DNA of 27,152 bases. Origin: an uncultured virus (IMG/VR IMGVR_UViG_3300033141_004135) (Duplodnaviria; Heunggongvirae; Uroviricota; Caudoviricetes). A program made the translations under genes and the position numbers. The notes beneath the pieces were generated by a model. That model saw only the letters and a list, made by a program, of their open reading frames with translations, was not told the DNA's origin and did not search any database. Shown in pieces: positions 1,430-26,656 of the stretch; positions within the stretch are counted from its first letter, which is position 1; each line of letters opens with the position of its first letter. The DNA is taken from the IMG/VR virus record IMGVR_UViG_3300033141_004135. One strand, given 5' to 3'.

Positions 1430-1739
1430 TATTATTTTCTTCACCTATTATTACTGTTATTTTTTTTGTTTTAATTTTAGGCATTTTTTTATTCTTGCCC
1501 AATAATCCTTTACCAAGATCCTCATATATCAATCCGGCATCCAACAAATAAGAAATGTGGAAACTAACAGTTCCCGATGTTATGCCGAGTTTTTCCGCAA
1601 GTTCTTTATGAGACAATCCGTCATTATTTCTAATTACGTCTAACATTTCCAATCTTTTTTCGTTTGCCAAAGATTCGGCAATCACTTTTATTTTTTCCTT
1701 ATCTTTATTCAATTCTAAAAATTCTTCCATATCCATCAT
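1422..1739 (-). CDS. ArsR-like winged-HTH transcriptional regulator
   Basis: SLANEKRLEMLDVI...LSHKELAEKLGITSGTVSFHISYLLDAGLI matches the ArsR/HTH_20 pattern. Confidence 0.85.
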   Translation of the reverse strand: MMDMEEFLELNKDKEKIKVIAESLANEKRLEMLDVIRNNDGLSHKELAEKLGITSGTVSFHISYLLDAGLIYEDLGKGLLGKNKKMPKIKTKKITVIIGEENNNG

Positions 1740-8783: not shown

Positions 8784-9116
8784 TCATAGCGGAATTTTTT
8801 TGTAGATCACATCACATTTCTTACAATAAATGATCCTATGTGGATCTGAGACATACATATCTATGGTGTTTAAATTAGTATTACATTTAGGGCATTTTAG
8901 AAATCCAACAATCTTTTTCTTATAGAAACAATAACAGCATACATCTTCATGATCTTCATGAAGAATATTATTTTTCTTGAGTTTATTGATTATCTCCACA
9001 TAAGAAGGATCTAGTTCAGCATAGCAATACTTACAGATTCCGAGTTTTTTTCCGAAATCTTTTTTAGGGAAAAAGAAATACTGAGTAAATGATTTATCAA
9101 CTTTTTGGATTTTCAT
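8784..9116 (-). CDS. Zinc-finger family 1 paralog (1/9)
   Basis: YFF..CKYC..LDPSY..II.KL..CCYC..GFLKCPKC..CKKC..YK. Confidence 0.88.
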   Translation of the reverse strand: MKIQKVDKSFTQYFFFPKKDFGKKLGICKYCYAELDPSYVEIINKLKKNNILHEDHEDVCCYCFYKKKIVGFLKCPKCNTNLNTIDMYVSDPHRIIYCKKCDVIYKKIPL

Positions 9117-9135
9117 GTATAATCATCTTTTTTTT

Positions 9136-9471
9136 TTAGATTTCCTTATATATCTTAACACATAAACCGCAACATATTAGTTTAGTTGTCTCTTCAGACG
9201 TAATCCTAATAGTCATTATTCTTAAGGTTGAATTACATTTTGGACATTTTAGAAATCCAAGATGTGTTTTTATGAATGCACAGTCGCAACACATTTCTTC
9301 ATATTCTGGATGGAGAATGCCTTGCTTTCTCATTCTTTTTATTATTTCCGTATATTTAGGATCTAACTTGTTTGAGCAATATTTACAATTATCTGTTTTG
9401 TTTCCAAAATTTGGATTATTAGAAGAAAAGAAATATTGCTCATATGGTTTTCTAAATTTAGAAATCTTCAT
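9136..9471 (-). CDS. Zinc-finger family 1 paralog (2/9)
   Basis: CKYC, LDPKY, CCDC, GFLKCPKC, CGLC. Confidence 0.88.
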   Translation of the reverse strand: MKISKFRKPYEQYFFSSNNPNFGNKTDNCKYCSNKLDPKYTEIIKRMRKQGILHPEYEEMCCDCAFIKTHLGFLKCPKCNSTLRIMTIRITSEETTKLICCGLCVKIYKEI

Positions 9472-9492
9472 TTTAAACTCACCTTATTTTTT

Positions 9493-9837
9493 TTATTTTT
9501 GATCCTTATTTACCATAATTCTTTTATATACTTTCCCACATAATACACAAAAAATCACCATATTTGAATTTACATCCTCTAAGATGGTGATTTCTCCATC
9601 ACATTTAATACATCTAAAGAATCCTAATTCTTTTTTCAATGTGAAGCAAAGACAACACATGTCTACATATTCTTCCGATAGAAGATTGGTGGTTTTTAGT
9701 TTCCTTATTATCATTGAATAGTAAGGATCCAATTCGATTCCACAATACTTACATTTATTATACACATATTCTTCGTAGTCTCTATCGGGGAAGAAGTAAA
9801 ATTGATTAAAATTTTTATATACTCTCGTGATTCTCAT
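9493..9837 (-). CDS. Zinc-finger family 1 paralog (3/9)
   Basis: CKYC, LDPYY, CCLC, GFFRCIKC, CVLC. Confidence 0.88.
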   Translation of the reverse strand: MRITRVYKNFNQFYFFPDRDYEEYVYNKCKYCGIELDPYYSMIIRKLKTTNLLSEEYVDMCCLCFTLKKELGFFRCIKCDGEITILEDVNSNMVIFCVLCGKVYKRIMVNKDQK

Positions 9838-10189
9838 CTAACATTCCTCCTAATTTAATTGTAAATTCTTTATATATTATACAGCAGTTATAACAATAAA
9901 TGACTCGACATGAAGGTCTTTCCTTTATATCATTCATACTAAGAAGGTTATTACATTTCGGACATCTCGTGAACCCGATCATGTCTTCTATGTAAGAACA
10001 GAAACAGCATAAACTTCTATGATCGGGGTGGAGGATGTTCGTCTTTCTTAGTTTATTTATTATCTCTGCGTAGCAAGGATCCATGAACCCATGACATGAT
10101 TCGCAGAAATCATTTCTCTCTCTAAATTCTTTTTTATCTGTTCTAAAAAAGAATTGTGTAAATGGTGTTGTTTCTTTTCTGATTATCAT
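9815..10189 (-). CDS. Zinc-finger family 1 paralog (4/9)
   Basis: CESC, MDPCY, CCFC, GFTRCPKC, CYNC. Confidence 0.88.
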   Translation of the reverse strand: MIIRKETTPFTQFFFRTDKKEFRERNDFCESCHGFMDPCYAEIINKLRKTNILHPDHRSLCCFCSYIEDMIGFTRCPKCNNLLSMNDIKERPSCRVIYCYNCCIIYKEFTIKLGGMLDENHESI

Positions 10190-10437
10190 TATAAAAACCC
10201 CTTTCCAACTTTCATGAGAGAATGACAGATACAGCAGAGCTGTTCATAGTTATCATCTAGGAGGTTTTTTTCTCTTAGACTATTTATTATTTTTACGTAT
10301 TGATCATCTAGAGGCAACCCGCATTTTTCACATGTCGAACATTCATCATATTTAAATTCATTAGATCCTCTCGAAGAGAGGAAAAAATAGAACTTAAAAA
10401 TACCTTCTTCTTTTTTACTTATGAACATCATCTTCAC
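10189..10437 (-). CDS. Zinc-finger family 1 paralog (5/9; first domain only)
   Basis: CEKC, LDDQY, CCIC; lacks the C-terminal zinc ribbon. Confidence 0.85.
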   Translation of the reverse strand: MKMMFISKKEEGIFKFYFFLSSRGSNEFKYDECSTCEKCGLPLDDQYVKIINSLREKNLLDDNYEQLCCICHSLMKVGKGFL

Positions 10438-10783
10438 TTCTTATTTCTTTCAATACTTTTTCACATTTTGAGCAGTAAACGATTACTTGTGGTTTATCTC
10501 TTAATATTATTGAATATAGATCTGTTCTGTTTCCACAAATCGGGCATTTATCCATCTTTATTGTATTTACCAGATAATAACATTCGCAGCATAATTTTTT
10601 ATAATCTTCCGTTAAAAGCCCGAATTCCGACAATTTCTTAACCACATAGGTAAATCCTCTCGACGATAGCACCATTCCACAGTTATCGCATTTTATTAGT
10701 TTTTCCATCGGTTTTTGATATGATGTAGAATAATACTTTATATTACTTTCGTTTTCAGTAAAAAATATTTTAATATCCATCAT
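10415..10783 (-). CDS. Zinc-finger family 1 paralog (6/9)
   Basis: CDNC, LLTEDYKKLCCEC, CPIC, CSKC. Confidence 0.85.
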   Translation of the reverse strand: MMDIKIFFTENESNIKYYSTSYQKPMEKLIKCDNCGMVLSSRGFTYVVKKLSEFGLLTEDYKKLCCECYYLVNTIKMDKCPICGNRTDLYSIILRDKPQVIVYCSKCEKVLKEIRSEDDVHK

Positions 10784-10796
10784 CTCGTTTGTTTGA

Positions 10797-11153
10797 TTAA
10801 ATATTTAACATGCTGCGATAAAGAGCCACAGCACAAGGTTTACAATAATAAGATGAGCCGATCTTGATTGCATCCTCAAGTTTTATCGTTTTTTGACAAT
10901 TTTTAATGCTGCAGTTGACTATTTTTTTACTTTCGGTGTGATATATATACATGCAATCACAACAGATTGATTTAAATTTTTCATGTAATAATGATTTTTC
11001 TCTCAGCTTGTTTATTAAGTAAGAATAAACAGTAGAAAGTTCTTTTTTGCAGTAATAACATCGTTCTTGAATTTTGATTCTACAACTTTTATCCGCAAAA
11101 TAGAAAAAATATCTCATGTCACCAAACGGTTCTACTTTTATGATTTTCATCAT
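10797..11153 (-). CDS. Zinc-finger family 1 paralog (7/9; different C-terminal finger)
   Basis: CYYC, CCDC, then CSIKNC...YYCKPC. Confidence 0.85.
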   Translation of the reverse strand: MMKIIKVEPFGDMRYFFYFADKSCRIKIQERCYYCKKELSTVYSYLINKLREKSLLHEKFKSICCDCMYIYHTESKKIVNCSIKNCQKTIKLEDAIKIGSSYYCKPCAVALYRSMLNI

Positions 11154-11476
11154 TCAACCATATCTTTTTTATATACCTTTCTGCATGAAATACAGTAAAA
11201 TGTTATATATGAATCTTCAACTATGGCATGGATTATGTCGCCACATTCTTTACATTTACTGAACCCTAATTCTTCCTTCACAAAGTAGCAATAACAACAT
11301 AATTCATCATAATCTTGATGGAGAAGTTCTCTTTTTCTCAATCTTTCTATCACTCCAGAATAATAATGAGATAGCAGCGAACCACAAGATTCGCAGCGTT
11401 TTGGCTTTACTGCAAAGTTTTCGTCGGCTTCGAATAAATATGTGTGCCACATGTCTTCTTTTTTTGTTATATTCAT
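11150..11476 (-). CDS. Zinc-finger family 1 paralog (8/9)
   Basis: CESC, CCYC, GFSKCKEC, CISC; start placed at MNITKK (ATGA overlap) to match the paralogs. Confidence 0.85.
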   Translation of the reverse strand: MNITKKEDMWHTYLFEADENFAVKPKRCESCGSLLSHYYSGVIERLRKRELLHQDYDELCCYCYFVKEELGFSKCKECGDIIHAIVEDSYITFYCISCRKVYKKDMVE

Positions 11477-16943: not shown

Positions 16944-17378
16944 TCATCTTTTGATCTTCCAATTTCTGAATCTTATTTCTAAGGTCCTTAAAGTAGATAA
17001 GGAAATTCCCGCAGTCGAAAACAGCGACCTCGCATCTTGATCCGATGAGATTTTTCTTTTCATCATCATGATGAACTCACCACATTCCTTACATAAGAAA
17101 TAGGTTCCAGCAAAGAAAACTGTGTAGTAGAAGGATCTTCTCCCGCATAATTTACATGGAATGCTTTTGGATTTATAAGAGAAAATTGTTTTGCTATGGT
17201 TTATCATGTCCTTAATGATAAGAAAGAGCGAGTCATCCATATCGATTTGTTTAATTCTCCTCACATAGTTAATCCCTACTTTTAATATGTCGAGACATTC
17301 GGGACATATGATCCGATCACACAGCAAGGGATATTTCTTCCAATAATTTATTTTCTTTTTACAAAGAAAGCATTCCAT
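16944..17378 (-). CDS. Zinc-finger family 2 paralog (2/7)
   Basis: CFLC..ICPEC..GINY..CKLC..LCKECGEFI. Confidence 0.87.
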   Translation of the reverse strand: MECFLCKKKINYWKKYPLLCDRIICPECLDILKVGINYVRRIKQIDMDDSLFLIIKDMINHSKTIFSYKSKSIPCKLCGRRSFYYTVFFAGTYFLCKECGEFIMMMKRKISSDQDARSLFSTAGISLSTLRTLEIRFRNWKIKR

Positions 17379-17778
17379 TTATCATCCTCTCCTTGAGTTT
17401 TAGGAGATGGTTTAAAACTTGAAGAATTGATGATGAAGATTGATCTTCCGAACTTAATAATCTATCCCTAAATCCTCGAAAAGAGTTGATGAATTCACCG
17501 CATCTCTTACAGAGATGCATTAATGAAGCGGGAGTATTTATGGTATAATATGTTGGTTTTTTCCTACAAAGAAAACAGCTAAAATCTCTTTTTTCTCTTT
17601 TGACATAAGAGTTAACAATTAACTCGTAGATTATTATGGTTCTATATTGACTTGGAATTCGTTTGAAGTAGTTTAGAGTCATCCTTACTAACGAATAACA
17701 ATCAGCACAGAATGTATTTGTCGAGTAGATGGAGTAATATGCCTTGTTGATGTTTTTCCCGCATTGATCACATTTCAT
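17359..17778 (-). CDS. Zinc-finger family 2 paralog (3/7)
   Basis: MKCDQC..FCADC..CFLC..LCKRCGEFI; start placed at MKC to match the paralogs. Confidence 0.85.
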   Translation of the reverse strand: MKCDQCGKNINKAYYSIYSTNTFCADCYSLVRMTLNYFKRIPSQYRTIIIYELIVNSYVKREKRDFSCFLCRKKPTYYTINTPASLMHLCKRCGEFINSFRGFRDRLLSSEDQSSSSILQVLNHLLKLKERMINGMLSL

Positions 17779-18211
17779 CTGCATCTTCCTCTCTGGATTC
17801 TTTAATGGCGATGATATATTGCAGAAAACCTTTTGCTCCAAGGGAGCTGCCTGTAAACCCCTTATAAACGATGTGGAATCCTCTCATGGCGAGGATGAAT
17901 TCACAACAAGCCTTACATACTCCTATTGAACGTAGATCAAAAAACTCACTGCATTCTTTAAGGTAGATGACGTTTGTGGTTCCTTTTTTCCAGCAGATGA
18001 AACAAAGACCGTAAGAATCCTTATCTTTTCTCATGAAATCGAATCCTAGGATCACTCTTACTAACCGATCGATCTGTAAGTCGTATGGGGGGTTTTTGAA
18101 AAATTTTATCCCCGTTTCTAACAAGTAATAACAGTTAGAGCATAGTTTATTTGGAGAACCATTGATTGGATGTAATTTCCTAACAGTTCTTCCACAACCT
18201 TCACAGAGCAT
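17768..18211 (-). CDS. Zinc-finger family 2 paralog (4/7)
   Basis: CEGC..LCSNC..CFIC..VCKACCEFI. Confidence 0.87.
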   Translation of the reverse strand: MLCEGCGRTVRKLHPINGSPNKLCSNCYYLLETGIKFFKNPPYDLQIDRLVRVILGFDFMRKDKDSYGLCFICWKKGTTNVIYLKECSEFFDLRSIGVCKACCEFILAMRGFHIVYKGFTGSSLGAKGFLQYIIAIKESREEDADEM

Positions 18212-18215
18212 GTTC

Positions 18216-18647
18216 TTAACCTCGATCGTTTTCTATTATAGATTTATGAGCCACAATGTACCGTAGAAACAGTAGTGTACCTTCTCCGTCTTTTCTAAAC
18301 TTTCTACAAGAATTTTCAAATCTTCTTAACGAGAAGATGAATTCAGCACAGTATTTACAAGCATCAAAACAAGCATTGAAACTATTTGGCGGGCAGTAGA
18401 AGATTCTACGACTTGTTATTTTTCTACCGCATATATAACAAGGGAATATCGGAGTTTTGATTTTTTCTGATCGTTCAAATCCTATGACGGCTAAATGTAT
18501 TTTTTCGATTTTGGTATTGTTTGGTATTTTATCGAAGTAAATCAATCCCATTTTGAGTAGGTATGAACAATCTGAGCAAAATAGATCCCAGGAGTTCTTT
18601 ACCGGATATCTGCGTTTTACTGGTCTATTACAAGCATCGCATTTCAT
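18216..18647 (-). CDS. Zinc-finger family 2 paralog (5/7)
   Basis: CDAC..FCSDC..CYIC..ACKYCAEFI. Confidence 0.87.
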   Translation of the reverse strand: MKCDACNRPVKRRYPVKNSWDLFCSDCSYLLKMGLIYFDKIPNNTKIEKIHLAVIGFERSEKIKTPIFPCYICGRKITSRRIFYCPPNSFNACFDACKYCAEFIFSLRRFENSCRKFRKDGEGTLLFLRYIVAHKSIIENDRG

Positions 18648-18912
18648 GATGGAAACATTTAAACATGTTGTAATTCCGATTTAGTTCAAATAATAGATTC
18701 TTTTTCTTATATAGGATTGACATTATCTCTAATTCGTACTCGTTAGCTTCCATATAGAAGAATCTCATTATTTTATCCTCTTTTTCGAGTAGGAAAGAGC
18801 AGATGAAGTTTCCATCGTTTTCTTCCCAAGTAAAATTTTGGATTTTCCAGTGATCTAATGATCTTCTGAGCTTTAGAACACGCTTGAAGATCTGTTTTTT
18901 CCATTCTTTCAT
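18628..18912 (-). CDS. Hypothetical protein
   Basis: ATGA overlap with the upstream gene; interrupts array 2. Confidence 0.7.
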   Translation of the reverse strand: MKEWKKQIFKRVLKLRRSLDHWKIQNFTWEENDGNFICSFLLEKEDKIMRFFYMEANEYELEIMSILYKKKNLLFELNRNYNMFKCFHHEMRCL

Positions 18913-19268
18913 TTTCTGATCTTCTTTTGTTTAATTATTTTCTCTAAGTCCTCTGCCAGCATGAGGCAAATTAATAATCTCCTCATGCTTTTACTTGAAA
19001 AAGCGAATAACTCTATCGAGTAGTATAAATCGCACCTTTCACAATTTTCTCTGCGAAAATCGTAAGGTGCTTTTAATATACCAGCCTTCAAATATCTGAT
19101 CCACTTCTCTAACTTAGGATGCGGATCATTTTTCTCTATTTCAATGAGTTTATTGTAATTCCTCCAAAACGAATCATACTCATATTTTATATGAGTCATC
19201 ATCTCATGGAGATCTAATGTTAGAATTTCTAACTTCTTTTTTCCAAACTTTAATATTTTTATCTTCAT
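18909..19268 (-). CDS. Hypothetical protein (paralog of 5901-6329)
   Basis: CERCDL ... SMRRLLICLMLAEDLEKI; GAGGT SD. Confidence 0.8.
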   Translation of the reverse strand: MKIKILKFGKKKLEILTLDLHEMMTHIKYEYDSFWRNYNKLIEIEKNDPHPKLEKWIRYLKAGILKAPYDFRRENCERCDLYYSIELFAFSSKSMRRLLICLMLAEDLEKIIKQKKIRK

Positions 19269-19299
19269 GATTTTTACCTCTTTTATTTTAGATTTTTTT

Positions 19300-19767
19300 T
19301 TAAAAATGAGAAAGCCCCTTTTTATTTCTGTTTGGGTTATCTCTACGTTTTTTATGTGATGCTAAATATCTAAGAAACATTGTGGATGCCGAGTTAAAGT
19401 TTCTAAATTTCTTACATGTCAAGTGGAATCTACGTAGTTCTAGGATGAACTCACCGCACTTCTTACAGATCCATGAGTAAGTATGTATTGGTTGATCAAA
19501 GAGTTTATCTTCATAATAGAAGAGAGTGCAGTTTGGTCTAATATCGTCGCATACAAAACATCTTATTGGCTTTTGAGAGTACCATCCTAAACTTTCCAAA
19601 CCGATGGTTATTTTGTTGATTTTATGCAGTAATAGTGCAGTTGGGAAACCATCGAAATAGTTCATTCCCATTTTGAATAAGAAGAGACAATTAGAGCATA
19701 GCTTATCTTTGGAGTGTTTTATTGGATAAACCTTCCTCACCTGTTTATAGCATCCACTACATCTCAT
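19300..19767 (-). CDS. Zinc-finger family 2 paralog (6/7)
   Basis: CSGC..LCSNC..GMNYF..CFVC..ICKKCGEFI. Confidence 0.87.
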   Translation of the reverse strand: MRCSGCYKQVRKVYPIKHSKDKLCSNCLFLFKMGMNYFDGFPTALLLHKINKITIGLESLGWYSQKPIRCFVCDDIRPNCTLFYYEDKLFDQPIHTYSWICKKCGEFILELRRFHLTCKKFRNFNSASTMFLRYLASHKKRRDNPNRNKKGLSHF

Positions 19768-20158
19768 TTTCTAAGAACCTCTGGCGTTGGTTTTTAACAT
19801 GGAGTAAGAAATCATACATGTTTACTGTTCTCTTATGCATTATTGTTTTTAGATGAAGCGAGAATTCTCCACATCTCTTACAAAGATAGAATATGTAGGT
19901 CACTCCTTTAAAGGAATAATAAGTTGGAGATTTCCCGCAGATATAACAATGTCGACATTTTCTGTAGGATTTCCTAAGCTTTTTGGGGTATATTCCTCTA
20001 AATGCTGAGAGGATTCCCTCTATCATATAATTTTCGATGGAGTAAAAATAGTTTTCCCCCATCTTCAATACGAAGAGACAATCACGGCAATACAATTTTT
20101 CTTCTGGTTTTCTGATCGTCTCTTCGTTGATTGTTTTTTTACAAACCATGCATTTCAT
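19757..20158 (-). CDS. Zinc-finger family 2 paralog (7/7)
   Basis: CMVC..YCRDC..GENYF..CYIC..LCKRCGEF. Confidence 0.87.
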   Translation of the reverse strand: MKCMVCKKTINEETIRKPEEKLYCRDCLFVLKMGENYFYSIENYMIEGILSAFRGIYPKKLRKSYRKCRHCYICGKSPTYYSFKGVTYIFYLCKRCGEFSLHLKTIMHKRTVNMYDFLLHVKNQRQRFLENEM

Positions 20159-20831
20159 TTTTCATGATTTTGATGTGATTTACGAGTTTTTCAGCTGTTG
20201 TGGGAGTTAGACCCGGACAGCTGTTTAACTCGATTAAATAAAAAAGATGATCGTGAATTCCAACGTCCATTCCTACAAAATGGACGTTTATTTTATTAAT
20301 GATTTTTTTGCAGAAATATTCTAATTTGGAGTTTAAAATGGTGACGTACTTACACGTCTTAATGTTCTTATAAAGAGGAGTATAGCATTTTGATCTCGGG
20401 ATCTTTTTCTTAGTGCTGATTACTCCGAGTTTAGTGATTAGAACCCGATATTCCTTTTCGAATGGGATGAAGATTTGGAAGTACTCATCCTGTGAAAAGG
20501 ATAGATCCTTGATCTCGGAGTACAGATAAAACCCGATGCCCTCGGCTTTTGATTCGAATCGATGTTTAACGACGAGTAGTTGATCATCTGGAGTTCCGAG
20601 TAGATCTTCGATGCTATAGAACGTCGGTGGATGGAGTATCTGTAGAGAGTCTAATGTCTGGTTCATTCTTATTTTATCTTTAATCCATTCGATGTATGGA
20701 TTAAAGATAAAAAAAATAGAAGATTTAGGATCTACGAAGTCTGATCTGGTGTTGATCAAGACGTCCTCAATGAAAAACCGTTTGAGGAGTTTGATCGATC
20801 TACTCCAGATCTTAGTAGGTATTATGATCAT
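20139..20831 (-). CDS. ATP-grasp amidoligase (RimK/YheCD-like)
   Basis: VVK..., FQIFIPFEKEYRV, FVGMDVG, YLIELNSCPGL (ExN motif). Confidence 0.85.
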   Translation of the reverse strand: MIIIPTKIWSRSIKLLKRFFIEDVLINTRSDFVDPKSSIFFIFNPYIEWIKDKIRMNQTLDSLQILHPPTFYSIEDLLGTPDDQLLVVKHRFESKAEGIGFYLYSEIKDLSFSQDEYFQIFIPFEKEYRVLITKLGVISTKKKIPRSKCYTPLYKNIKTCKYVTILNSKLEYFCKKIINKINVHFVGMDVGIHDHLFYLIELNSCPGLTPTTAEKLVNHIKIMKNEMHGL

Positions 20832-20834
20832 CGC

Positions 20835-21557
20835 CTATTTTTTCCACCATTTTTTCTTACTTTTGGTGGTGGAAAGAGGCGTATAATCATAGTACTTCCA
20901 GCCACCATATTTATATACGTAAGTGTATTTTTTCTCCTCTGGCTTATGTAGTCGTTTCGGTCCAGATCTCTTTAAGAGATATAGTCCTTCATCTATTTCT
21001 GTTTGCTCACCGAAATAGCTGAGATCTGAACCGTAGATCCCTTCTCCATCTATGTAACCGAACTCACCGCTCGTCTTGAGGAGATATATTTTATTTTCTC
21101 TCCTATCGTATACAACGATAACACCGTAGAATGAATCATCGAAAGTAGAGTAGAAATTAAGAATCCCCACTTTCTCTATTATGTAGGCGATGGCGTATGA
21201 ATCGGATACGCCCACTTTCCTACACCCGAGTAATTTGGCGTAATCATAAGCCTTTGTGAATATGCCGTTATGAGCAATGACATATCGCCCAAGACAGATC
21301 GGTTGAGTATTTTTTATTGAGATCTTGCCGTGAGACTTCCTCCTATAATGAAGGATATAGGGGGGAGTCAAGTCTTCGTATATTTCACCGCTGTACTCCA
21401 AGCCGTCCTCTACTGTTTTGTAGAGGACGTTTTTATCATGTACATATGCTCCGAATCCATCACCACCGTTAGTAGTGATTAATTCAAAGCTCATGATATA
21501 TAGGTCCTCACGAGTAAGAGGAAACCTCTTACTCACATTTACAAAAATTCTGCACAT
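20835..21557 (-). CDS. Class II (Ntn) glutamine amidotransferase
   Basis: N-terminal MC, DGFG, HYRRKSHG, NTQP, AHNG, SDS. Confidence 0.9.
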   Translation of the reverse strand: MCRIFVNVSKRFPLTREDLYIMSFELITTNGGDGFGAYVHDKNVLYKTVEDGLEYSGEIYEDLTPPYILHYRRKSHGKISIKNTQPICLGRYVIAHNGIFTKAYDYAKLLGCRKVGVSDSYAIAYIIEKVGILNFYSTFDDSFYGVIVVYDRRENKIYLLKTSGEFGYIDGEGIYGSDLSYFGEQTEIDEGLYLLKRSGPKRLHKPEEKKYTYVYKYGGWKYYDYTPLSTTKSKKKWWKK

Positions 21558-21577
21558 TTTTATCTTTTTTTTTATGA

Positions 21578-22840
21578 TTAGATGATCTTGAATTTTTCCA
21601 AAACTATCCTAAGGAATCTGTTGACATTCCCCTCAAGACAGTTGAAAAATAAGAATGATCTTAATGATCTAGAAAATCCTATCGAGTATGGAGATGTATT
21701 CCCTACACCGAAGGATTTCCTAACTATCTTGATTGTTAGATCCTTCTCCTTAAATACGCCGTCTTCATCACGGCTGTATATGGATCTAACAAACATTTCA
21801 TCCCCATAATATTCTATCTTATCGGAGATGAAAATTGACATCGTCGTCGATGCTTTAGATATCGGATCATCTCCATCTCTGACTCTCACACCGTATAAAA
21901 CGGTATTTTCTGGTGTGAGAATTTCCCTTTTAGCTTTTCTCCAGAGATCAACGATCTCGTTGATCGGTTCCATATAATCGTCCATATTTACGATTATATG
22001 GGGTTTTCCTTTCTTCAATGAAGATGATGCATTGTATCCGAAATTTTCGAATACATCATAACTCATCTTTTTCCCTCTCTCTATAAGAGAGAAAAGAGAT
22101 AAGATGTATCCGTTAAATCGAGGATACGGTGAACCCCACTTCATCATTCTGAGTATGTTTTGTTTCGCATGCTGGTATACTAGCCAGTACGCATCTCCCC
22201 AGTCTTTATCTTCGTTCAAATCACGAAGAAGAGAGAATATCTCTGGGGAGGTTTTTAGTTTTCTCCAGTACTCAGCTATCAACGATACTATGGCGAATCC
22301 GCCTCTAAGATGTAGAGGCGAAGAGATAAAGGAGTATGGTACCCTAAATTCAAACCCATGGCTTTTTGATCTCACCATTGAGTTTGAATCTATGACACCA
22401 TAGCAGTAATCCGATCTTACTACCCTCTTGTACAGTTCCTCGGAGGGTATTAAGCCCCATATTATGGGGATGAAATTTTCAACCAATAAATGGGAGATAA
22501 CTTTAATCGATTTGCAGTTTAACGGCTTACAATTACCTCCCATGTGTATGTGGCATCCAATAGGTTGTCCGTTATAAAAAGCTCCAGAACGGAGCCAAAG
22601 GTTCTCTCTATTCTCTTTTATGAATATTTTCTTCAGAGTGTAGAGTAGAACCTCTACATTATGAGTAAGACCTACAATCCGAGTATGATTGCTCGGATGA
22701 GGTCTTAACTCCAATGGAGTTCCTGCTCCATCGCACCCGATTGGTTCGTGCGTAGAGCAGAAATCCAAGTCATCTCTGGCACTATAGATAGAGCCAGACC
22801 TATTCAATATAAGGAATTCTGGATCGCATCCAATTAACAT
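21578..22840 (-). CDS. phiEco32-like COOH-NH2 ligase type 2 (glutamine synthetase/gamma-GCS-fold amidoligase)
   Basis: LIGCDPEF, IGCDG...LELRP, GCHIHMG, RSKSHGFEFR. Confidence 0.88.
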   Translation of the reverse strand: MLIGCDPEFLILNRSGSIYSARDDLDFCSTHEPIGCDGAGTPLELRPHPSNHTRIVGLTHNVEVLLYTLKKIFIKENRENLWLRSGAFYNGQPIGCHIHMGGNCKPLNCKSIKVISHLLVENFIPIIWGLIPSEELYKRVVRSDYCYGVIDSNSMVRSKSHGFEFRVPYSFISSPLHLRGGFAIVSLIAEYWRKLKTSPEIFSLLRDLNEDKDWGDAYWLVYQHAKQNILRMMKWGSPYPRFNGYILSLFSLIERGKKMSYDVFENFGYNASSSLKKGKPHIIVNMDDYMEPINEIVDLWRKAKREILTPENTVLYGVRVRDGDDPISKASTTMSIFISDKIEYYGDEMFVRSIYSRDEDGVFKEKDLTIKIVRKSFGVGNTSPYSIGFSRSLRSFLFFNCLEGNVNRFLRIVLEKFKII

Positions 22841-22882
22841 GATTATTTATGATGATTTTTTTTTGATTAATATAATAAATGT

Positions 22883-23197
22883 GATGAAAAAAAGTATTGG
22901 AGGGATGCGAACATCCTCCAATTGAACTGGGGGATAATGGTAAGATCCGTAAAGAAAATGGACCTCACTCCTCTTAAGATCCGACCCTACATCGACCTCA
23001 TCATTTCCTCGACATCAACATCCCCAACCCTCATCTCTACCTCCTGAGTCTTACGTGTATACACACTGCTCTTGTAGAGTGAAAGGAATTTGGGGACTTT
23101 TGCAGCGCACTACCTTTAGCTAAGATGCAGAATCGGGTCTACGCCCCATAGGAGTGATTGCGGAGTATGGAGTAAGTCTCCAACCTTCGCCACTCCT
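22883..23197 (-). ncRNA. Putative structured ncRNA, motif A copy 1 (unassigned family)
   Basis: Homologous to 24217-24431 (25-nt identical core, compensatory stems, frame-breaking indels); ends in a UUCG hairpin plus T-tract. Confidence 0.7.
22887..22922 (-). terminator. Hairpin (ATTGGAGGATG-TTCG-CATCCCTCCAAT) plus T7 tract
   Basis: GC-rich stem, UUCG loop, oligo-T; repeated at 24221-24256. Confidence 0.6.
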
Positions 23198-23199
23198 TT

Positions 23200-23394
23200 T
23201 CAGATCATCAATTCGAGATCTTCAGCATCGAAGAATTCGATGATTCTTCTTTTTTCCGGGATGATCACGCTTTCTACATTGGGAAAACGTGATATCCGTC
23301 GAAGAAGATCTCGAAGGTCCTCTTCCTTTATCTTTATGTCGATGTACTCTACCCCATCGGTAAAGTACTCCGACAATTTTATCTTAATTAGCAT
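23200..23394 (-). CDS. Hypothetical protein, 64 aa
   Basis: MLIKIKLSEYF...; ATG 23394 avoids overlap with 23423-23611. Confidence 0.65.
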   Translation of the reverse strand: MLIKIKLSEYFTDGVEYIDIKIKEEDLRDLLRRISRFPNVESVIIPEKRRIIEFFDAEDLELMI

Positions 23395-23422
23395 GATTAA
23401 GTAGAAAAAAAAAAGATTATTA

Positions 23423-23611
23423 TTATTTTTTGATAATTGCATTAATCTCCTTCCAACAATTACGGCAAGCCCAGATTTCTTTTCCTTCTCTAATCTCCTC
23501 GAAGTGAAACCTCTCTTGATCTGCACCTCGTGGATCTGACGAGGCACAGTACTGAACTTGCCAATTGGGGCAGTTTGTACATGTCAACGTTCGGATGATT
23601 CCAGTATCCAT
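23423..23611 (-). CDS. Small Cys-rich protein
   Basis: CTNC..YC..ACRNC; GAGGTGA SD. Confidence 0.7.
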   Translation of the reverse strand: MDTGIIRTLTCTNCPNWQVQYCASSDPRGADQERFHFEEIREGKEIWACRNCWKEINAIIKK

Positions 23612-23625
23612 TTTTTTTTATCACC

Positions 23626-23778
23626 TCATATTGCGAATACATCGATCCATCTCCTCCCACAAGAAAGACAGAGGAGATTGGCGTGTTTAACGTCATCGAT
23701 CGAATCTACCTTTATTAAAAAGGTAGATGAAGATCCGCATTTTTCACAATTTAAAGTTATGTGGTTTACATTTATCAT
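23626..23778 (-). CDS. Small zinc-ribbon protein, 50 aa
   Basis: MINVNHITLNCEKCGSS...LLCLSCGRRW; ATGA overlap with the upstream gene; not in the ORF track. Confidence 0.65.
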   Translation of the reverse strand: MINVNHITLNCEKCGSSSTFLIKVDSIDDVKHANLLCLSCGRRWIDVFAI

Positions 23779-24098
23779 GGTTTCTCACCCCTCATGAATG
23801 GGGGAGTCACCCTCCATATGAATTCCTCGCAGATTGTTTTGTTTATTTTCAGCGTTTTGTTATACTCTTTGGCGAATCTTCGCCAGAGTTTAAACAATTT
23901 TCTATGGATTCTATCTGTATACAATCCATAGCGTTTAAACTCTTGCATTATTTTCTTTTTCGAGTATTCGATGGGACCTTCTCTGCATAAGGCGGTGGTG
24001 ATCATTCTCTTAATCACTTTTGCATGTTCACGATGGAAATCAGCCTCTCTGCTCCGCACAAAAGTCATATATTTTTCATAAATTTTATCTGACAACAT
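23775..24098 (-). CDS. Hypothetical basic protein
   Basis: 107-aa ORF preceded by structured leader B. Confidence 0.7.
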   Translation of the reverse strand: MLSDKIYEKYMTFVRSREADFHREHAKVIKRMITTALCREGPIEYSKKKIMQEFKRYGLYTDRIHRKLFKLWRRFAKEYNKTLKINKTICEEFIWRVTPPFMRGEKP

Positions 24099-24223
24099 GG
24101 TTTCCCCATGCTGATCGATTTGATCAGCATGGGGCTATAATGACTATGGATTCTACCCGCCCACCCCATCCCCGACCGCCATTTCATCCCCCATGATCTA
24201 ACTGATCATGGGTCTGGATGAAA
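24096..24223 (-). promoter_or_regulatory. Leader motif B copy 1: hairpin / G-quadruplex / hairpin / AAACC-ATG
   Basis: Hairpin 24190-24212, GGGGATGGGGTGGGCGGG (24156-24173, minus strand), 13-bp hairpin 24104-24134. Confidence 0.6.
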
Positions 24224-24431
24224 AAAAATATTGGAGGGATGCGAACATCCTCCGATCTGATGAGGGGATAATGATAGGATCCTAAGAAAATGCGGATCTC
24301 ACTTCTCAGCTTAGAAGAGATGGTAATCCTGCCTATCTCGGTCTTAGGGATCGATCTCTTTTTTAGCCTAAGCTCCCTCAGAGAAGTGATTGCGGAACAC
24401 GGAGTAGATCTCCAATGCTTCGCCACTTCTC
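24217..24431 (-). ncRNA. Putative structured ncRNA, motif A copy 2
   Basis: Same architecture as 22883-23197 with a shorter variable domain. Confidence 0.7.
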
Positions 24432-24464
24432 GTCTAGTTGTAGTTGGAGTATGTACGAATGCAT

Positions 24465-24680
24465 TTAGCATTTCTCTGGATTTTCTCTCTCTAATGATTT
24501 CTTCTCCTTTGGAGAGAGTAGAAACGGATAGGAGTCATAGAGAGAAATTCCGCAATAGTCACACCGCAACTCTTCCGAGCCATCATCAAAGAGTAGAAGA
24601 GTTGCTCTTTTTCTGTGACAAAAGATACAATATAATCCATTGAATTTATATTTACATTTTTTACTTTCCATTTTCATCAC
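24465..24680 (-). CDS. Small zinc-finger protein
   Basis: YCIFCH ... RCDYCG. Confidence 0.7.
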   Translation of the reverse strand: MMKMESKKCKYKFNGLYCIFCHRKRATLLLFDDGSEELRCDYCGISLYDSYPFLLSPKEKKSLERENPEKC

Positions 24681-24691
24681 TTTAATATTTA

Positions 24692-24744
24692 TTTAATCTC
24701 TTATGAGAGTAGATACTAGGTGTCTACTCTTATAAGAGATTAAA
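24692..24744. repeat. Intergenic palindrome family C, copy 1
   Basis: 25-bp arms with 2 mismatches and a 3-nt centre; core AGTAGAT-N7-GTCTACT. Confidence 0.9.
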
Positions 24745-24765
24745 CTATAAAATAAGGAAAAAAAA

Positions 24766-25230
24766 TTATATATTTAGTAAATCTGGGAAATTGCATACCA
24801 ATTTTGGATAGAATAATGTTATTGCATGTTGGAGCTCATCATCTGAGCTCCTATCGTAGATTAAATAATCCAACTCATAGTATTTTTTACAGTTATCAGT
24901 TGGAACATACATAAACGCCTTTATTACTTCTCCGGTTTTTCTCTCTACGAGAACCTCTTCTCTTTTGAAGAGATCGTTGTGGGTTCCTTCTAAGAAGTCA
25001 ATGTTGTCTAATGCTTCCATTGGAACCTCCGAGTACATTAAGGTCCAGAAATGATGATCCTTCAATTCGTAAGTGAACGAGTATTGATCTACGTAAGGAT
25101 GTAGGATCCTCACATGGTCGAGTACTTTCACTGGCTCTGCTGGAAATCCAGAAAGCCAATGAAAGATTGAAGAGTCATTTGCTACAAGGCGATATGTTTT
25201 CTCGTCTTTATAGGCTTTTCTTATCCTCAT
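24766..25230 (-). CDS. Gamma-glutamylcyclotransferase/AIG2-like protein
   Basis: EVPMEALDNIDFLEG...LFKREEVLVERKTGEVIKAFMYV matches the GGCT-like LDxxEG..Y/FxR..V..AxxY pattern; the N-terminal YGSL motif is not evident. Confidence 0.65.
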   Translation of the reverse strand: MRIRKAYKDEKTYRLVANDSSIFHWLSGFPAEPVKVLDHVRILHPYVDQYSFTYELKDHHFWTLMYSEVPMEALDNIDFLEGTHNDLFKREEVLVERKTGEVIKAFMYVPTDNCKKYYELDYLIYDRSSDDELQHAITLFYPKLVCNFPDLLNI

Positions 25231-25354: not shown

Positions 25355-25409
25355 ATTTATCTTTCCATAAGAGTAGACGCCGAGTATCTACTATTATGGA
25401 AAGATAAAT
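25355..25409. repeat. Intergenic palindrome family C, copy 3
   Basis: 26-bp arms with 3 mismatches; AGTAGAC-N7-ATCTACT. Confidence 0.9.
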
Positions 25410-26198: not shown

Positions 26199-26231
26199 AA
26201 AAATATATCACCTTTTTGGGGCATTATCTAC

Positions 26232-26275
26232 CCCCTTATCTGGATAGATTGAGTAGTATCTACCCAGATAAGAGG
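26232..26275. repeat. Intergenic palindrome family C, copy 4
   Basis: 18-bp arms with 2 mismatches; GATAGAT-N8-ATCTACC. Confidence 0.85.
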
Positions 26276-26296
26276 ATAAATAATTAAAAAAAAATC

Positions 26297-26656
26297 TTAT
26301 ATCCTAACGTAAAATATATCCCGGTAAGGACCGGGATCGTAAATATTATCTCCGTTAATATTCGAGTAAATGCATATCCCACATCTTATATGACAGCATT
26401 GACACATACATGAGTATAACTCAGTTTCAATCCTCAGTTTGAGCCCTCTCTCATCAAAGACGAGAGAGAAGTCAAAGATAGTATTCTCTCTTATGGATAA
26501 TCTCCAGCAACCTTCTTTCTTTATTTTTGTTGCTGTGATATATACCTCATCGAGAGTGAGTAACCCACTCTCGATTGCATCCTCGAGGCAGTAGGCTATT
26601 GCATCTGCAATATCCTCCACCTTTGTAGAGGACAATAGCTCAGTGAGACTGTACAT
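26297..26656 (-). CDS. Hypothetical protein with a Cys-rich C-terminus
   Basis: 119-aa ORF; GGAG upstream. Confidence 0.7.
   Translation of the reverse strand: MYSLTELLSSTKVEDIADAIAYCLEDAIESGLLTLDEVYITATKIKKEGCWRLSIRENTIFDFSLVFDERGLKLRIETELYSCMCQCCHIRCGICIYSNINGDNIYDPGPYRDIFYVRI

Follow-up and report, generated by a model that had tools for sequence, protein, structure and literature searches.

A duplicated and probably structured RNA element between transcription units of an uncultured sediment virus

The DNA analysed here, called the window throughout, is a stretch of 27,152 nt from an uncultured sediment virus, and all of its genes lie on the minus strand. Judging from the sequence, the host is probably archaeal; the best NCBIfam match of the viral clamp loader is the RFC small subunit (1e-47). 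Two related non-coding elements are present, each located 3' of a small gene and 5' of the next operon. Copy 1 starts 3 nt past the stop (23200-23202) of a 65-aa ORF, and copy 2 starts 33 nt past the stop (24465-24467) of a 71-aa zinc-ribbon ORF. Metabolic-type genes, namely those for an amidoligase, a GATase and an ATP-grasp protein, follow copy 1. Copy 2 precedes a 3-4-gene unit of unrelated small genes, and the 122 nt to its next ATG (24099-24220) span a G+C-rich palindromic stretch. The original prediction placed copy 1 directly upstream of the amidoligase operon. This is correct as to position (43 nt to the ATG), but the hairpin, the U7 tract and an AT-rich, promoter-like box lie in between. 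The box in this 43-nt spacer resembles those found 5' of other operons, and therefore the amidoligase operon may have its own promoter. Runs of T8-10 found after stop codons, without hairpins, also point to an archaeal host.

In both copies, middles that differ are enclosed by a block with a hairpin on the 5' side and a block ending in a hairpin with U7-8 on the 3' side (Table 1). The 3' blocks (22883-22973 and 24217-24307) agree at 79% over 91 nt when compared without gaps and at 85.3% over 95 nt when aligned (E 2e-21), and a run of 25 identical nucleotides covers the UUCG hairpin. Similarly, the 5' blocks (23144-23194 and 24375-24427) share 81% over 53 aligned nt (E 2e-6). No alignment is possible for the middles, which measure about 170 nt in copy 1 and 67 nt in copy 2. 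Conservation between the copies begins about 7 nt 5' of X1 and ends 4 nt past the U-tract. The G+C content is 47% in copy 1 and 45% in copy 2, as against 10-31% in seven other non-coding gaps; an eighth gap (24099-24216) has 53%. A third copy is absent from the 27-kb window according to two covariance models, R1 and R2, both of which find the two copies only, with next-best matches at E 0.05, on copy 1 read in reverse, and at E 0.4. The duplication, the common architecture and every part named in the original prediction were recovered, at positions identical to it or 1-4 nt away. The copies are best read as two paralogous forms of a structured, non-coding RNA module that has not been described before.

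Table 1. Parts of the two copies of the element (window coordinates; motifs are written as RNA of the minus strand)
Feature	Coordinates	Strand	Remarks
Copy 1, whole, X1 through U7	22887..23197	-	311 nt
Copy 2, whole, X1 through U8	24221..24431	-	211 nt
Copy 1 X1, AGGAGUG, 5' arm of closing helix P1a	23191..23197	-	Shine-Dalgarno-like
Copy 2 X1, GAGAAGUG	24424..24431	-	
Copy 1 inner hairpin P1b/P1c	23160..23190	-	conserved GCG/CGC base, A.C mismatch
Copy 1 AAU bulge after P1b/P1c	23157..23159	-	3 nt
Copy 2 inner hairpin P1b/P1c	24392..24423	-	tip swapped in run X3
Copy 1 X', CACUCCU	23150..23156	-	partner X1 or, alternatively, X2
Copy 2 X', CACUUCUC	24381..24388	-	
Copy 1 A, UGGGG, 5' arm of helix closing the three-way junction	23144..23148	-	
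Copy 2 A, UGAGGG	24375..24380	-	
Copy 1 variable domain P3	22973..23143	-	long branched hairpin; 13-bp base including 3 G-U pairs
Copy 2 variable domain P3	24308..24374	-	hairpin, 8-bp base
Copy 1 X2, second AGGAGUG	22966..22972	-	P3/P4 junction
Copy 2 X2, second GAGAAGUG	24300..24307	-	
Copy 1 P4	22940..22968	-	9-bp hairpin; 11-nt U-rich loop with AUUUUCUU
Copy 2 P4	24274..24302	-	8/9 positions paired, one A.C
Copy 1 CAUUAU linker	22934..22939	-	invariant
Copy 2 CAUUAU linker	24268..24273	-	invariant
Copy 1 A', CCCCA	22928..22932	-	
Copy 2 A', CCCUCA	24261..24266	-	extra U matched by extra A in A
Copy 1 3' hairpin, UUCG loop	22897..22921	-	bulged C; -13.0 kcal/mol
Copy 2 3' hairpin	24233..24253	-	within 25-nt identical run; -9.9 kcal/mol
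Copy 1 U7 tract	22887..22893	-	3 nt past hairpin foot
Copy 2 U8 tract	24221..24228	-	

Whole-element folding gave z-scores of -3.2 for copy 1 and -2.6 for copy 2. Independent folding again gave the helices proposed earlier, namely X1/X', A/A', the UUCG hairpin and the small one whose loop holds AUUUUCUU, and RNAalifold independently yields P1, P4 and the 3' hairpin. Both the MFE and the centroid folds of the two copies contain a three-way junction, in which A/A' closes P3 and P4. In P1, 36 of 36 cells are paired, with one double and three one-sided changes, as compared with 33-58% in slid controls. Compensatory changes between the copies occur in X1/X' and A/A'. As originally claimed, the G/A difference in X is repeated at X1, X' and X2, and A/A' differ by an inserted A-U pair whose two halves match. 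The covariation is without statistical power because only two paralogues and near-identical strain variants exist, and its score on this input was matched by 255 of 500 shuffles. The evidence for the strand, earlier described as mixed, leans towards minus by the pairs in the listed helices (10 G-U against 3 A.C) and by the fold energy of copy 1 (-110.8 kcal/mol on the minus strand versus -93.5 on the plus), while for copy 2 the strands are tied. It is our fairly confident view that a real structured RNA is encoded on the minus strand.

It had also been proposed that a third X site is complementary to X' and that its pairing crosses A/A', and at the level of sequence this was borne out in both copies. 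X2 is fully complementary to X', with 8 and 9 Watson-Crick pairs including the covarying position. The duplex energies of X'/X2 (-13.4 and -14.0 kcal/mol) are close to those of X1/X' (-11.8 and -12.8). In dinucleotide shuffles, a second exact X arose in 1009 of 20000 cases for copy 1; for copy 2, such a recurrence is seldom reached by chance (10/20000 for the 8-mer and 55/20000 for the 7-mer). In copy 1, X2 with its upstream flank repeats 16 nt of the X1 region in direct orientation, and 14 of the 16 are identical. The helix order X' < A < X2 < A' is a crossing one; only a single pair of crossing helices can be drawn. A switch or a pseudoknot is plausible on this model.

The 3' hairpins have a bulged C in the stem, and the U-run begins 3-4 nt past the foot; neither was listed by a simple terminator scan. 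An alternative, anti-terminator-like hairpin may be drawn between A' with the linker and the 5' arm of the 3' hairpin (-8.7 kcal/mol in copy 1 and -5.3 in copy 2). It was matched in 322 and 2185 of 5000 shuffles, respectively, and is not above chance. When X1 is masked in the nascent copy 2 RNA, A/A' (P about 1.0) gives way to the alternative hairpin (P about 0.67), and with the mini-ORF region described below masked, the alternative hairpin reaches P 0.8-0.97 in nascent RNA. In the full-length RNA, the 3' hairpin prevails under nearly all conditions.

As for coding potential, the claim that the copies share no reading frame stands for copy 1, in which all three frames contain stops. It needs a caveat for copy 2, which is spanned by a 95-aa ORF (ORF95, 24184-24471) whose ATG overlaps the upstream stop. 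Used as a proxy for translated homologues of the element, ORF95 has none among 5.8 billion clusters, and it has no Pfam match. Inside the 5' hairpin, a frame of 14-15 codons is open in both copies; it has a UUG 9-10 nt past the X1 motif and ends at a stop that lies 3-4 nt past A. Its 5-6 codon differences between the copies are all non-synonymous.

The element had been put forward as a candidate new class of RNA, and a scan of the whole window on both strands with Rfam 15 (4227 families) gave no match at the gathering threshold. Between 22600 and 24700, there are 10 sub-threshold matches at E<=10, all to miRNA, snoRNA, sRNA and small pseudoknot models. The best of them reaches 23 bits versus a gathering score of 60, and two small pseudoknot models match 23850-23979, outside both copies. 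The suggested identity as a ribozyme or ligand riboswitch found no backing, as no catalytic or aptamer family appeared even at E<=10; HDV-like ribozyme, group I intron and xrRNA models were likewise without a match at either level. Inspection by eye revealed no bulge-helix-bulge splice motif, K-turn, C/D boxes, CRISPR-repeat likeness or tRNA T-arm in the element, and ARAGORN reported no tRNA or tmRNA gene in the window.

In seven scans with DNA patterns, which covered collections of viral contigs, metagenome contigs and genomes, only one real relative was found, the strain contig L026. It was the only real one among 28 loci in metagenome contigs and is 97.7% identical to the window across 2077 nt. 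In viral contigs, the 3' hairpin and 5' block patterns gave no loci, the relaxed 5' block 10 and the P4-linker 8, none of them real, and for the loop-linker-U-tract pattern the arrangement was absent from the best-folding 25 of 63 loci. Species genomes gave 7 loci, none real, and blastn against phage GenBank records gave no match. With the amidoligase and the clamp loader as protein anchors, no relative was found in viral contigs, and the amidoligase had no phage match. In the collections searched, the element is, by sequence, confined to one virus lineage. In copy 1, L026 departs from the window only at 22930, within A'; the change (minus strand, C to U) turns a G-C pair of A/A' into G-U. A 19-nt match of L026 to the copy 1 hairpin (E 0.12) was dropped, as it was not reproduced in the window. 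Copy 1 differs between strains at 1 of 315 positions and a neighbouring ORF at 1 of 324; strain differences are spread unevenly over the region. For this reason, the scarcity of changes in copy 1 relative to the rest (Fisher P 0.007) is unsafe as evidence of selection, and it may have come from mosaic recombination instead.

Of six sequencing runs, none of which was listed as RNA, X4-X6 leave parts of the stretch without cover. A contig from run X3, representing a second strain, matches 24163-24396 and then diverges from inside the tip of the 5' hairpin, so that a copy-2-like element stands behind a different upstream sequence. In place of the tip of P1 it has an unrelated hairpin of 8 perfectly matched bp, and the conserved base is kept. 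By reading of the swapped tip, it carries an AUG at the codon position of the mini-ORF start and in the same frame. Three 1-nt indels are found in P3, and the net indel in ORF95 is +1.

The function that we tentatively favour, at somewhat less than even chances, is that of a boundary RNA acting in cis, with a bistable fold that would tune termination or the survival of the 3' end. The RNA would be the tail of a short minus-strand transcription unit, consisting of a small gene, the RNA and a hairpin with its U-tract, just before the next operon. In the fold obtained from the folding and the few compensatory changes, the X1/X' clamp at the 5' end closes the conserved base of a hairpin and leaves the tip free to vary. 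It is followed by the three-way junction shut by A/A', with the large variable P3 and the small conserved P4 with its U-rich loop as arms; the invariant CAUUAU linker and the 3' hairpin with its U7-8 tract complete the fold. Such an element would end the upstream transcript, and the bistable fold upstream would set the efficacy or the stability of that end. The local X'/X1 hairpin is expected to form first. Once X1 is occluded or removed, X' could pair with X2, stacking on and crossing A/A'. In copy 1, a ribosome stopping 3 nt upstream of X1 might be such a trigger; this example fits copy 1 only, because the stop codon of copy 2 lies 33 nt from X1. A' would further be competed for by the weak alternative hairpin, and in this way read-through into the downstream operon, or else the survival of the 3' end, would come under regulation. 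If this is true, RNA alone serves the virus to keep successive transcription units apart or to link them conditionally, and the few switchable terminator or 3'-end devices gain a new fold, in which a clamp hairpin and a three-way junction are combined with a strand that has two identical possible partners. A further model, which we hold to be improbable, is that of a 5'-end-sensing knot switch, in which exonuclease removal or ribosome cover of X1 lets X'/X2 lock a knotted three-way junction. The locked junction would block further decay or fix the termination decision, leaving a stable viral RNA; if true, a device like an xrRNA would be present in a virus that has a DNA genome and infects a prokaryote, probably an archaeon. 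The covariation at three sites (X1, X' and X2) gives a clean and directly testable prediction. The breadth is narrow, as it concerns one viral lineage, and the element may be a lineage-specific repeat with a modest role. We know of very few structured RNAs described for archaeal or uncultured sediment viruses, and a comparable element was not found in those parts of the literature on such viral RNAs that were available.

Several known systems resemble a boundary RNA of this kind in part. In phage lambda, the cro-nutR-tR1 region consists of a small early gene, a cis RNA element, a terminator and the next operon. The lambda nut sites, as well as putL and putR of HK022, are present as two related copies per genome, of which each governs a different operon, and act on the nascent transcript. 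The present elements are analogous in the order gene-RNA-terminator-operon and in having two copies. However, they are without boxA/boxB or the put sequence or fold, and they have their own conserved hairpin and U-tract, a length of 211-311 nt and a three-way junction; the host may be archaeal, and read-through control is here only proposed. With attenuators and riboswitch platforms, they would share a modelled chain of exclusive helices (X1/X', X'/X2, and A/A' versus the alternative hairpin versus the 3' hairpin) and a hairpin with a U-tract just 5' of an operon. Unlike attenuators, the element follows a coding gene with no upstream promoter, its alternative hairpin is at chance level, its U-tract stands off the hairpin by 3-4 nt and no known aptamer matches. 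To our knowledge, hairpin-dependent attenuation is not established in archaea. The crossing order of X', A, X2 and A' recalls the pseudoknotted topology of HDV-like and group I cores, with their nested double pseudoknot or P3-P7 core and conserved catalytic nucleotides, which the absence of a ribozyme or intron match and of conserved catalytic residues sets apart from the element.

Among the other explanations, it is unlikely that the element is a trans-acting viral ncRNA, cut or terminated from the transcript, whose conserved core (the P1 base, the P4 loop, the linker and the 3' hairpin) binds a protein of the host or the virus and whose P3 gives specificity to each paralogue. The conserved single-stranded motifs flanking the variable arm (the AUUUUCUU loop and the CAUUAU linker), the conservation of the 25-nt 3' hairpin beyond the need of termination alone and the absence of any change in the copy 1 arm P3 between strains would suit it, as would the different upstream sequence in run X3, expected of an autonomous module. 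However, no promoter-like sequence is conserved upstream, where conservation begins just before X1; antisense matches to transcripts of the window are not above chance (the best are U/A runs, E at least 0.15), and no partner protein is identifiable. Run X3 also bears on the rather doubtful idea of a DNA-level intergenic repeat cassette, PeSL-like or MITE/PATE-like, spread by recombination or transposition and with an incidental or secondary RNA fold, since its breakpoint lies inside the hairpin tip with an unlike flank beyond. PeSLs are numerous. ERIC, Correia, BOX and the IS200/IS605-derived PATEs are co-transcribed intergenic repeats that have conserved ends and a variable middle, insert after stops and fold stably in the mRNA tail. 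The element also has conserved ends around a middle of variable size; in copy 1, one foot (UUGGAG...CUCCA) is common to the 3' hairpin and the hairpin at the 5' tip, and relatives are absent outside the lineage in the collections searched. The PeSLs of T4-like phages are described as small composite terminator/promoter sequences and points of genetic exchange (PMC4122927). The likeness to PeSLs lies in repeated intergenic stem-loop sequences between small genes and in a strain breakpoint inside the repeat; the element differs in having only two copies in 27 kb, each of 211-311 nt, and no promoter part conserved together with the terminator, as conservation stops right after the U-tract. Neither terminal inverted repeats nor a target duplication are visible by eye, and no transposase family was found among the ORFs scanned with Pfam, PHROGs and NCBIfam (the Pfam scan covered some ORFs). 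Furthermore, the G-U-rich helices favour one RNA strand, and together with the compensatory changes in X1/X', A/A' and X2 they indicate, at the level of sequence, selection on the RNA fold, unlike in repeat elements.

The remaining explanations are less probable than these. In flaviviruses, PK1 of the xrRNAs comprises only a few base pairs, and xrRNAs are so far known to us only from eukaryotic RNA viruses. Flavivirus-type xrRNAs withstand a 5'-3' exonuclease and have a base triple as well as a ring of 15-16 nt round the 5' end; in plant viruses the pseudoknot forms once the nuclease has degraded its way through a P1 stem, and several xrRNAs in series are common (PMC8374639). The element is similar in its three-way junction, in the pairing that its 5' flank could make with a junction strand, in a competing 5' stem whose removal would permit the pseudoknot and in its duplicated copies in the 3' region. 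An xrRNA-like device would have a 5'-to-3' exonuclease digest X1, so that X' pairs with X2 and the knot halts decay, leaving a stable ncRNA. This topological fit is set against the lack of any sequence or Rfam xrRNA match, an X'/X2 helix that at 8-9 bp is longer than PK1, the stable hairpin between X1 and X' and the setting in a DNA virus of a prokaryote, and we regard the device as quite unlikely. Hardly different is the standing of a ligand-binding riboswitch or self-cleaving ribozyme: a junction with a possible pseudoknot 5' of metabolic-type genes and the G+C enrichment speak for it, but copy 2 lies upstream of unrelated small genes, both copies are 3' of a coding gene and not of a promoter, their variable arms differ in length (67 versus about 170 nt), and neither a family match at the gathering score or E<=10 nor a recognisable conserved motif like a catalytic core was found. 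Still a little less credible is a leader-peptide attenuator, in which the mini-ORF would be translated with X1 as its ribosome-binding site and the ribosome would decide the formation of A/A'. The frame is open in both copies, the in-frame AUG of the strain variant falls at the same codon position, and masking of the mini-ORF lifts the alternative hairpin. Nevertheless, every codon difference is non-synonymous, the codons that are conserved fall on conserved bases of the helices, X1 makes a poor Shine-Dalgarno sequence in copy 2, and the start-codon coincidence is rare by chance only to the level of a few percent (a rough figure, before three-frame correction). Lastly, it is very improbable that the copies are decayed coding paralogues, with copy 2 as the intact ORF95 and copy 1 as a pseudogene. 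The overlap of the ORF95 start with the upstream stop and the single frame shared by the 5' and 3' blocks of copy 1 agree with it; against this, ORF95 is without homologues, a 1-nt indel puts the 5' blocks of the two copies out of frame, copy 1 has three stops in the ORF95 frame, the strain variant has its net +1 indel, and the helices survive replacement of the sequence.

The two related RNA elements, copy 1 and copy 2, are a genuine same-strand duplication. Their 3' blocks are 79% identical without gaps and 85% identical over 95 nt in a gapped alignment (E 2e-21), and their 5' blocks are 81% identical over 53 nt; the middles (~170 nt in copy 1, 67 nt in copy 2) do not align between the copies. 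All the sub-elements lie within 1-4 nt of where the original prediction had placed them. It had also called the G-U evidence on the strand mixed. The folding of copy 2 is a tie between the strands, but the rest favours minus. The minus fold of copy 1 is better by 17 kcal/mol than the plus fold. Read on the minus strand, the listed helices hold 10 G-U pairs, all of which would turn into A.C if read on plus, against 3 A.C. Minus, which carries every gene of the 27-kb window, is also indicated by the U-tracts and the orientation of the genes. The G+C content is 47% in copy 1 and 45% in copy 2, against 34% for the window and 10-31% for seven other non-coding gaps; structured RNAs usually stand out by their high G+C where the background is AT-rich.

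Positions of the two elements and of neighbouring features
Feature	Position	Strand	Remark
Copy 1	22887-23197	-	
Copy 2	24221-24431	-	
3' blocks	22883-22973; 24217-24307	-	
Frames within 5' hairpin	23140-23182; 24369-24415	-	14-15 codons, open in both copies
Alternative P4-arm hairpin	22960-22982	-	copy 1
Intergenic stretch	24099-24220		copy 2 U-tract to next ATG; 53% G+C; fold z -5.6 (minus), -6.3 (plus)
Perfect palindrome	~24183-24222		
Perfect palindrome	24104-24116/24122-24134		13-nt arms
G-run	~24156-24173	-	GGGG-AU-GGGG-U-GGG-C-GGG
Long palindrome	24692-24744		25-nt arms, 92% complementary
Long palindrome	25355-25409		23-nt arms, 96% complementary
Long palindrome	26205-26302		45-nt arms, 73% complementary
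T8-T10 runs (examples)	23404-23413; 24755-24762; 26280-26288		directly after stops, no hairpin
ArsR/MarR-like HTH gene	1422-1739		
Amidoligase cluster	20139-22840; 24766-25230	-	
Small-gene arrays	8800-11320; 17070-20090	-	

A common architecture appears in the minimum free energy (MFE) and centroid folds of both copies (z -3.2 for copy 1, -2.6 for copy 2), all energies being nearest-neighbour predictions without pseudoknot terms. In the 5' hairpin, P1, strand X at its first site (X1) pairs with X' to close a GCG/CGC base with a conserved A.C mismatch and a 3-nt AAU bulge, on top of which sits a distal hairpin. The A/A' helix closes a three-way junction bearing the long variable arm P3, and P4 is a conserved 9-bp hairpin with a U-rich loop of 11 nt. 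A CAUUAU linker is invariant in both copies, and a 3' hairpin with a U-tract ends the element. Unguided RNAalifold recovers P1, P4 and the 3' hairpin.

The comparative support for this fold is real but thin. In P1, all 36 of 36 cells are paired, against only 33-58% in slid controls; three changes there are one-sided and one is double (G-C to A-U). A shuffle control (255/500) is uninformative because only two sequences are compared. Between the copies, A and A' differ by a matched inserted A-U pair, and P4 has one-sided changes only, plus one break. Metagenome contig L026, a strain variant, is 97.7% identical to 22098-24173 and is the sole real match of the metagenome scan. Its single difference from copy 1 in 315 positions, at 22930, turns a G-C pair of A/A' into G-U. 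The rest of the alignment differs at 46/1761 (P 0.007), but the low divergence of copy 1 is not leaned on because divergence is patchy and a neighbouring ORF is likewise low (1/324). A contig of sequencing run X3, which holds another strain variant, matches copy 2 over 24163-24396 and then departs. In its 30-letter loose end, GGATGAAG and CTTCATCC form a perfect inverted repeat of 8 bp around a 5-nt spacer, and the complement of the conserved GUGGCGA comes next. In this variant the hairpin tip is thus an unrelated sequence that again forms a perfect hairpin on the unchanged conserved base, and this replacement is the strongest single evidence that the hairpin, rather than its sequence, is kept.

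Strand X recurs at a third site, X2, at the P3/P4 junction, where each copy exactly repeats its own X1 (AGGAGUG for copy 1, GAGAAGUG for copy 2). With one flanking base included, X'/X2 has 8 (copy 1) and 9 (copy 2) potential Watson-Crick pairs, and the copy 1 repeat can be followed over 16 nt, 14 of them identical. Of 20000 dinucleotide shuffles of the copy 1 body, 1009 produced a second exact X; in copy 2 the counts were 10/20000 for the 8-mer and 55/20000 for the 7-mer, the tests of the two copies not being independent because the copies are homologous. The G-to-A change in X makes X1 and X2 less Shine-Dalgarno-like and is compensated in X'; this fits base-pairing better than it fits a common binding site for a protein or the ribosome. 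As predicted originally, X'/X2 crosses A/A', the order being X', A, X2, A'. The duplex energies for copy 1/copy 2 are similar, at -13.4/-14.0 kcal/mol for X'/X2 and -11.8/-12.8 for X1/X'. When X1 is available, the MFE is the P1 state (-110.8/-69.8, against -101.9/-62.3 with a nested X'/X2 forced). A switch between X1/X' and X'/X2 is, on these models, possible in topology and energy and hinted at statistically.

In lambda cro-nutR-tR1 and HK022 put, a small gene, an RNA element, a terminator and the next operon follow one another. The same layout, with a structured RNA and a hairpin/U-tract, is found twice in the window, which favours a cis-acting boundary element. Copy 2 lies after a zinc-ribbon gene of 71 aa, upstream of which are an AT-rich box of its own and a palindrome with 25-nt arms. 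Copy 1 begins 3 nt past the stop of a 65-aa gene, the last in a run of small genes, and the amidoligase gene (PF14395) starts 43 nt after its end, followed by a class-II GATase-like and an ATP-grasp-like gene; this 43-nt spacer may hold a promoter.

We tentatively propose, at somewhat short of an even chance, that the elements are cis-acting boundary RNAs that tune termination or the survival of 3' ends through a bistable fold. X1/X' and X'/X2 would be competing pairings. A/A' would compete with an alternative hairpin, in which the linker and A' pair with the 5' arm of the 3' hairpin, and this would in turn compete with the 3' hairpin itself. The alternative hairpin is predicted at -8.7 (copy 1) and -5.3 (copy 2) kcal/mol, against -13.0 and -9.9 for the 3' hairpin, and it is not above chance, being matched in 322/5000 and 2185/5000 shuffles, respectively. 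In ensemble predictions for nascent copy 2 with X1 masked, A/A' (P ~1.0) gives way to the alternative hairpin (P ~0.67); in the full-length RNA, the 3' hairpin dominates. The U-tract of 7-8 nt lies 3-4 nt from the foot of the 3' hairpins, which a simple terminator scan missed. We know of no demonstration of hairpin-dependent attenuation in archaea. The P4 5' arm of copy 1 can instead pair with an upstream GGAUCUUA, a motif that flanks X2 on both sides, to give a hairpin directly followed by AUUUUCUUUA. The same scan listed this hairpin as terminator-like; it is a possible further alternative pairing.

Other readings have to be weighed against the boundary element. Conservation begins ~7 nt before X1, and no promoter-like sequence upstream of the elements is conserved between the copies. 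The elements are thus most simply the tails of upstream transcripts, and a trans-acting ncRNA is rather unlikely. A DNA-level repeat cassette is unlikely; both covariance models retrieve copies 1 and 2 only, with no third copy in the window. The suggested identity as a ribozyme or riboswitch found no support in comparison, as models of ribozymes, riboswitches, introns and xrRNAs gave no match even at E<=10. A ligand-binding riboswitch or a ribozyme is accordingly improbable, and an xrRNA-like device is improbable to the same degree. The suggested novelty did hold, no Rfam 15 family reaching its gathering score, and no tRNA or tmRNA was found in the window. DNA-pattern and protein-anchored scans of public collections returned no member besides the L026 variant, the DNA-pattern scans needing an exact match at 14-22 specified bases, so that diverged relatives would be missed. 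The element constitutes a new RNA family. Its general kind, a structured terminator-associated viral RNA, is familiar, and its unusual trait is a strand covarying at three sites.

Translation has also to be considered. The elements had been said to share no reading frame; copy 1 indeed has stops in all three minus frames, but a 95-aa ORF extends across copy 2. This ORF has no Pfam match and no homologue in a 5.8-billion-cluster search, the frame differs between the two 5' blocks through a 1-nt indel, and the differences listed for the run X3 contig include three 1-nt indels (net +1) within it. Decayed coding paralogues are very improbable. A leader-peptide attenuator would use the short frame within P1 (METYSILRNHSYGA and MEIYSVFRNHFSEGA) and is quite improbable. 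This frame has a UUG start 9-10 nt after the X1 motif and a stop 3-4 nt after A; as we read the run X3 contig, the swapped tip has an AUG at the same codon position in the same frame.

The stretch between the copy 2 U-tract and the next ATG has its own structure. Two perfect palindromes, related in sequence, lie within it, and the G-run between them fits a G-quadruplex pattern; that the stretch folds equally well on both strands suggests operator sites at the DNA level, around a promoter. Three long intergenic palindromes lie upstream of gene starts, each with an AT-rich TTATTTTAT-like box immediately before it. Their core is GAGTAGA...TCTACTC (GGTAGA...TCTACC in the third), and judging from sequence a single regulator encoded by the virus probably uses them as operators. 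The window also encodes an ArsR/MarR-like HTH protein.

The T8-T10 runs after several stops, the GAGGT or GGTGA motifs 7-10 nt before ATG in many genes and a clamp loader resembling the replication factor C small subunit (best NCBIfam match, 1e-47) suggest an archaeal host. The same clamp loader matches the T4-type clamp loader among PHROGs (5e-41) and, among GenBank phages, is only ~30% identical to those of T4-like cyanophages. Operons are preceded by AT-rich TTTAT-type boxes. The virus is probably a tailed virus of an archaeon, with a bacterial host as the alternative. Its DNA is present in marine-sediment and hydrothermal-vent metagenomes, with long near-identical contigs in run X3 among the runs compared.

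The amidoligase cluster comprises a phiEco32-type COOH-NH2 ligase (PF14395, 2.4e-16), class-II GATase-like and ATP-grasp/RimK-like genes, with a gamma-glutamyl cyclotransferase-like gene nearby; by its gene content it is a putative peptide-ligation or small-molecule module. One paper lists like modules as auxiliary metabolic genes of one Poseidoniales virus genome and reports amidoligase with GATase in tailed archaeal viruses (PMC11706807). Elsewhere, small paralogous genes (~110-160 aa) that carry repeated Cys-codon motifs stand in tandem arrays, which make up repeat families D1-D5 and D7. Their products resemble small proteins of zinc-ribbon type, in families such as a hyperplastic region typically has.
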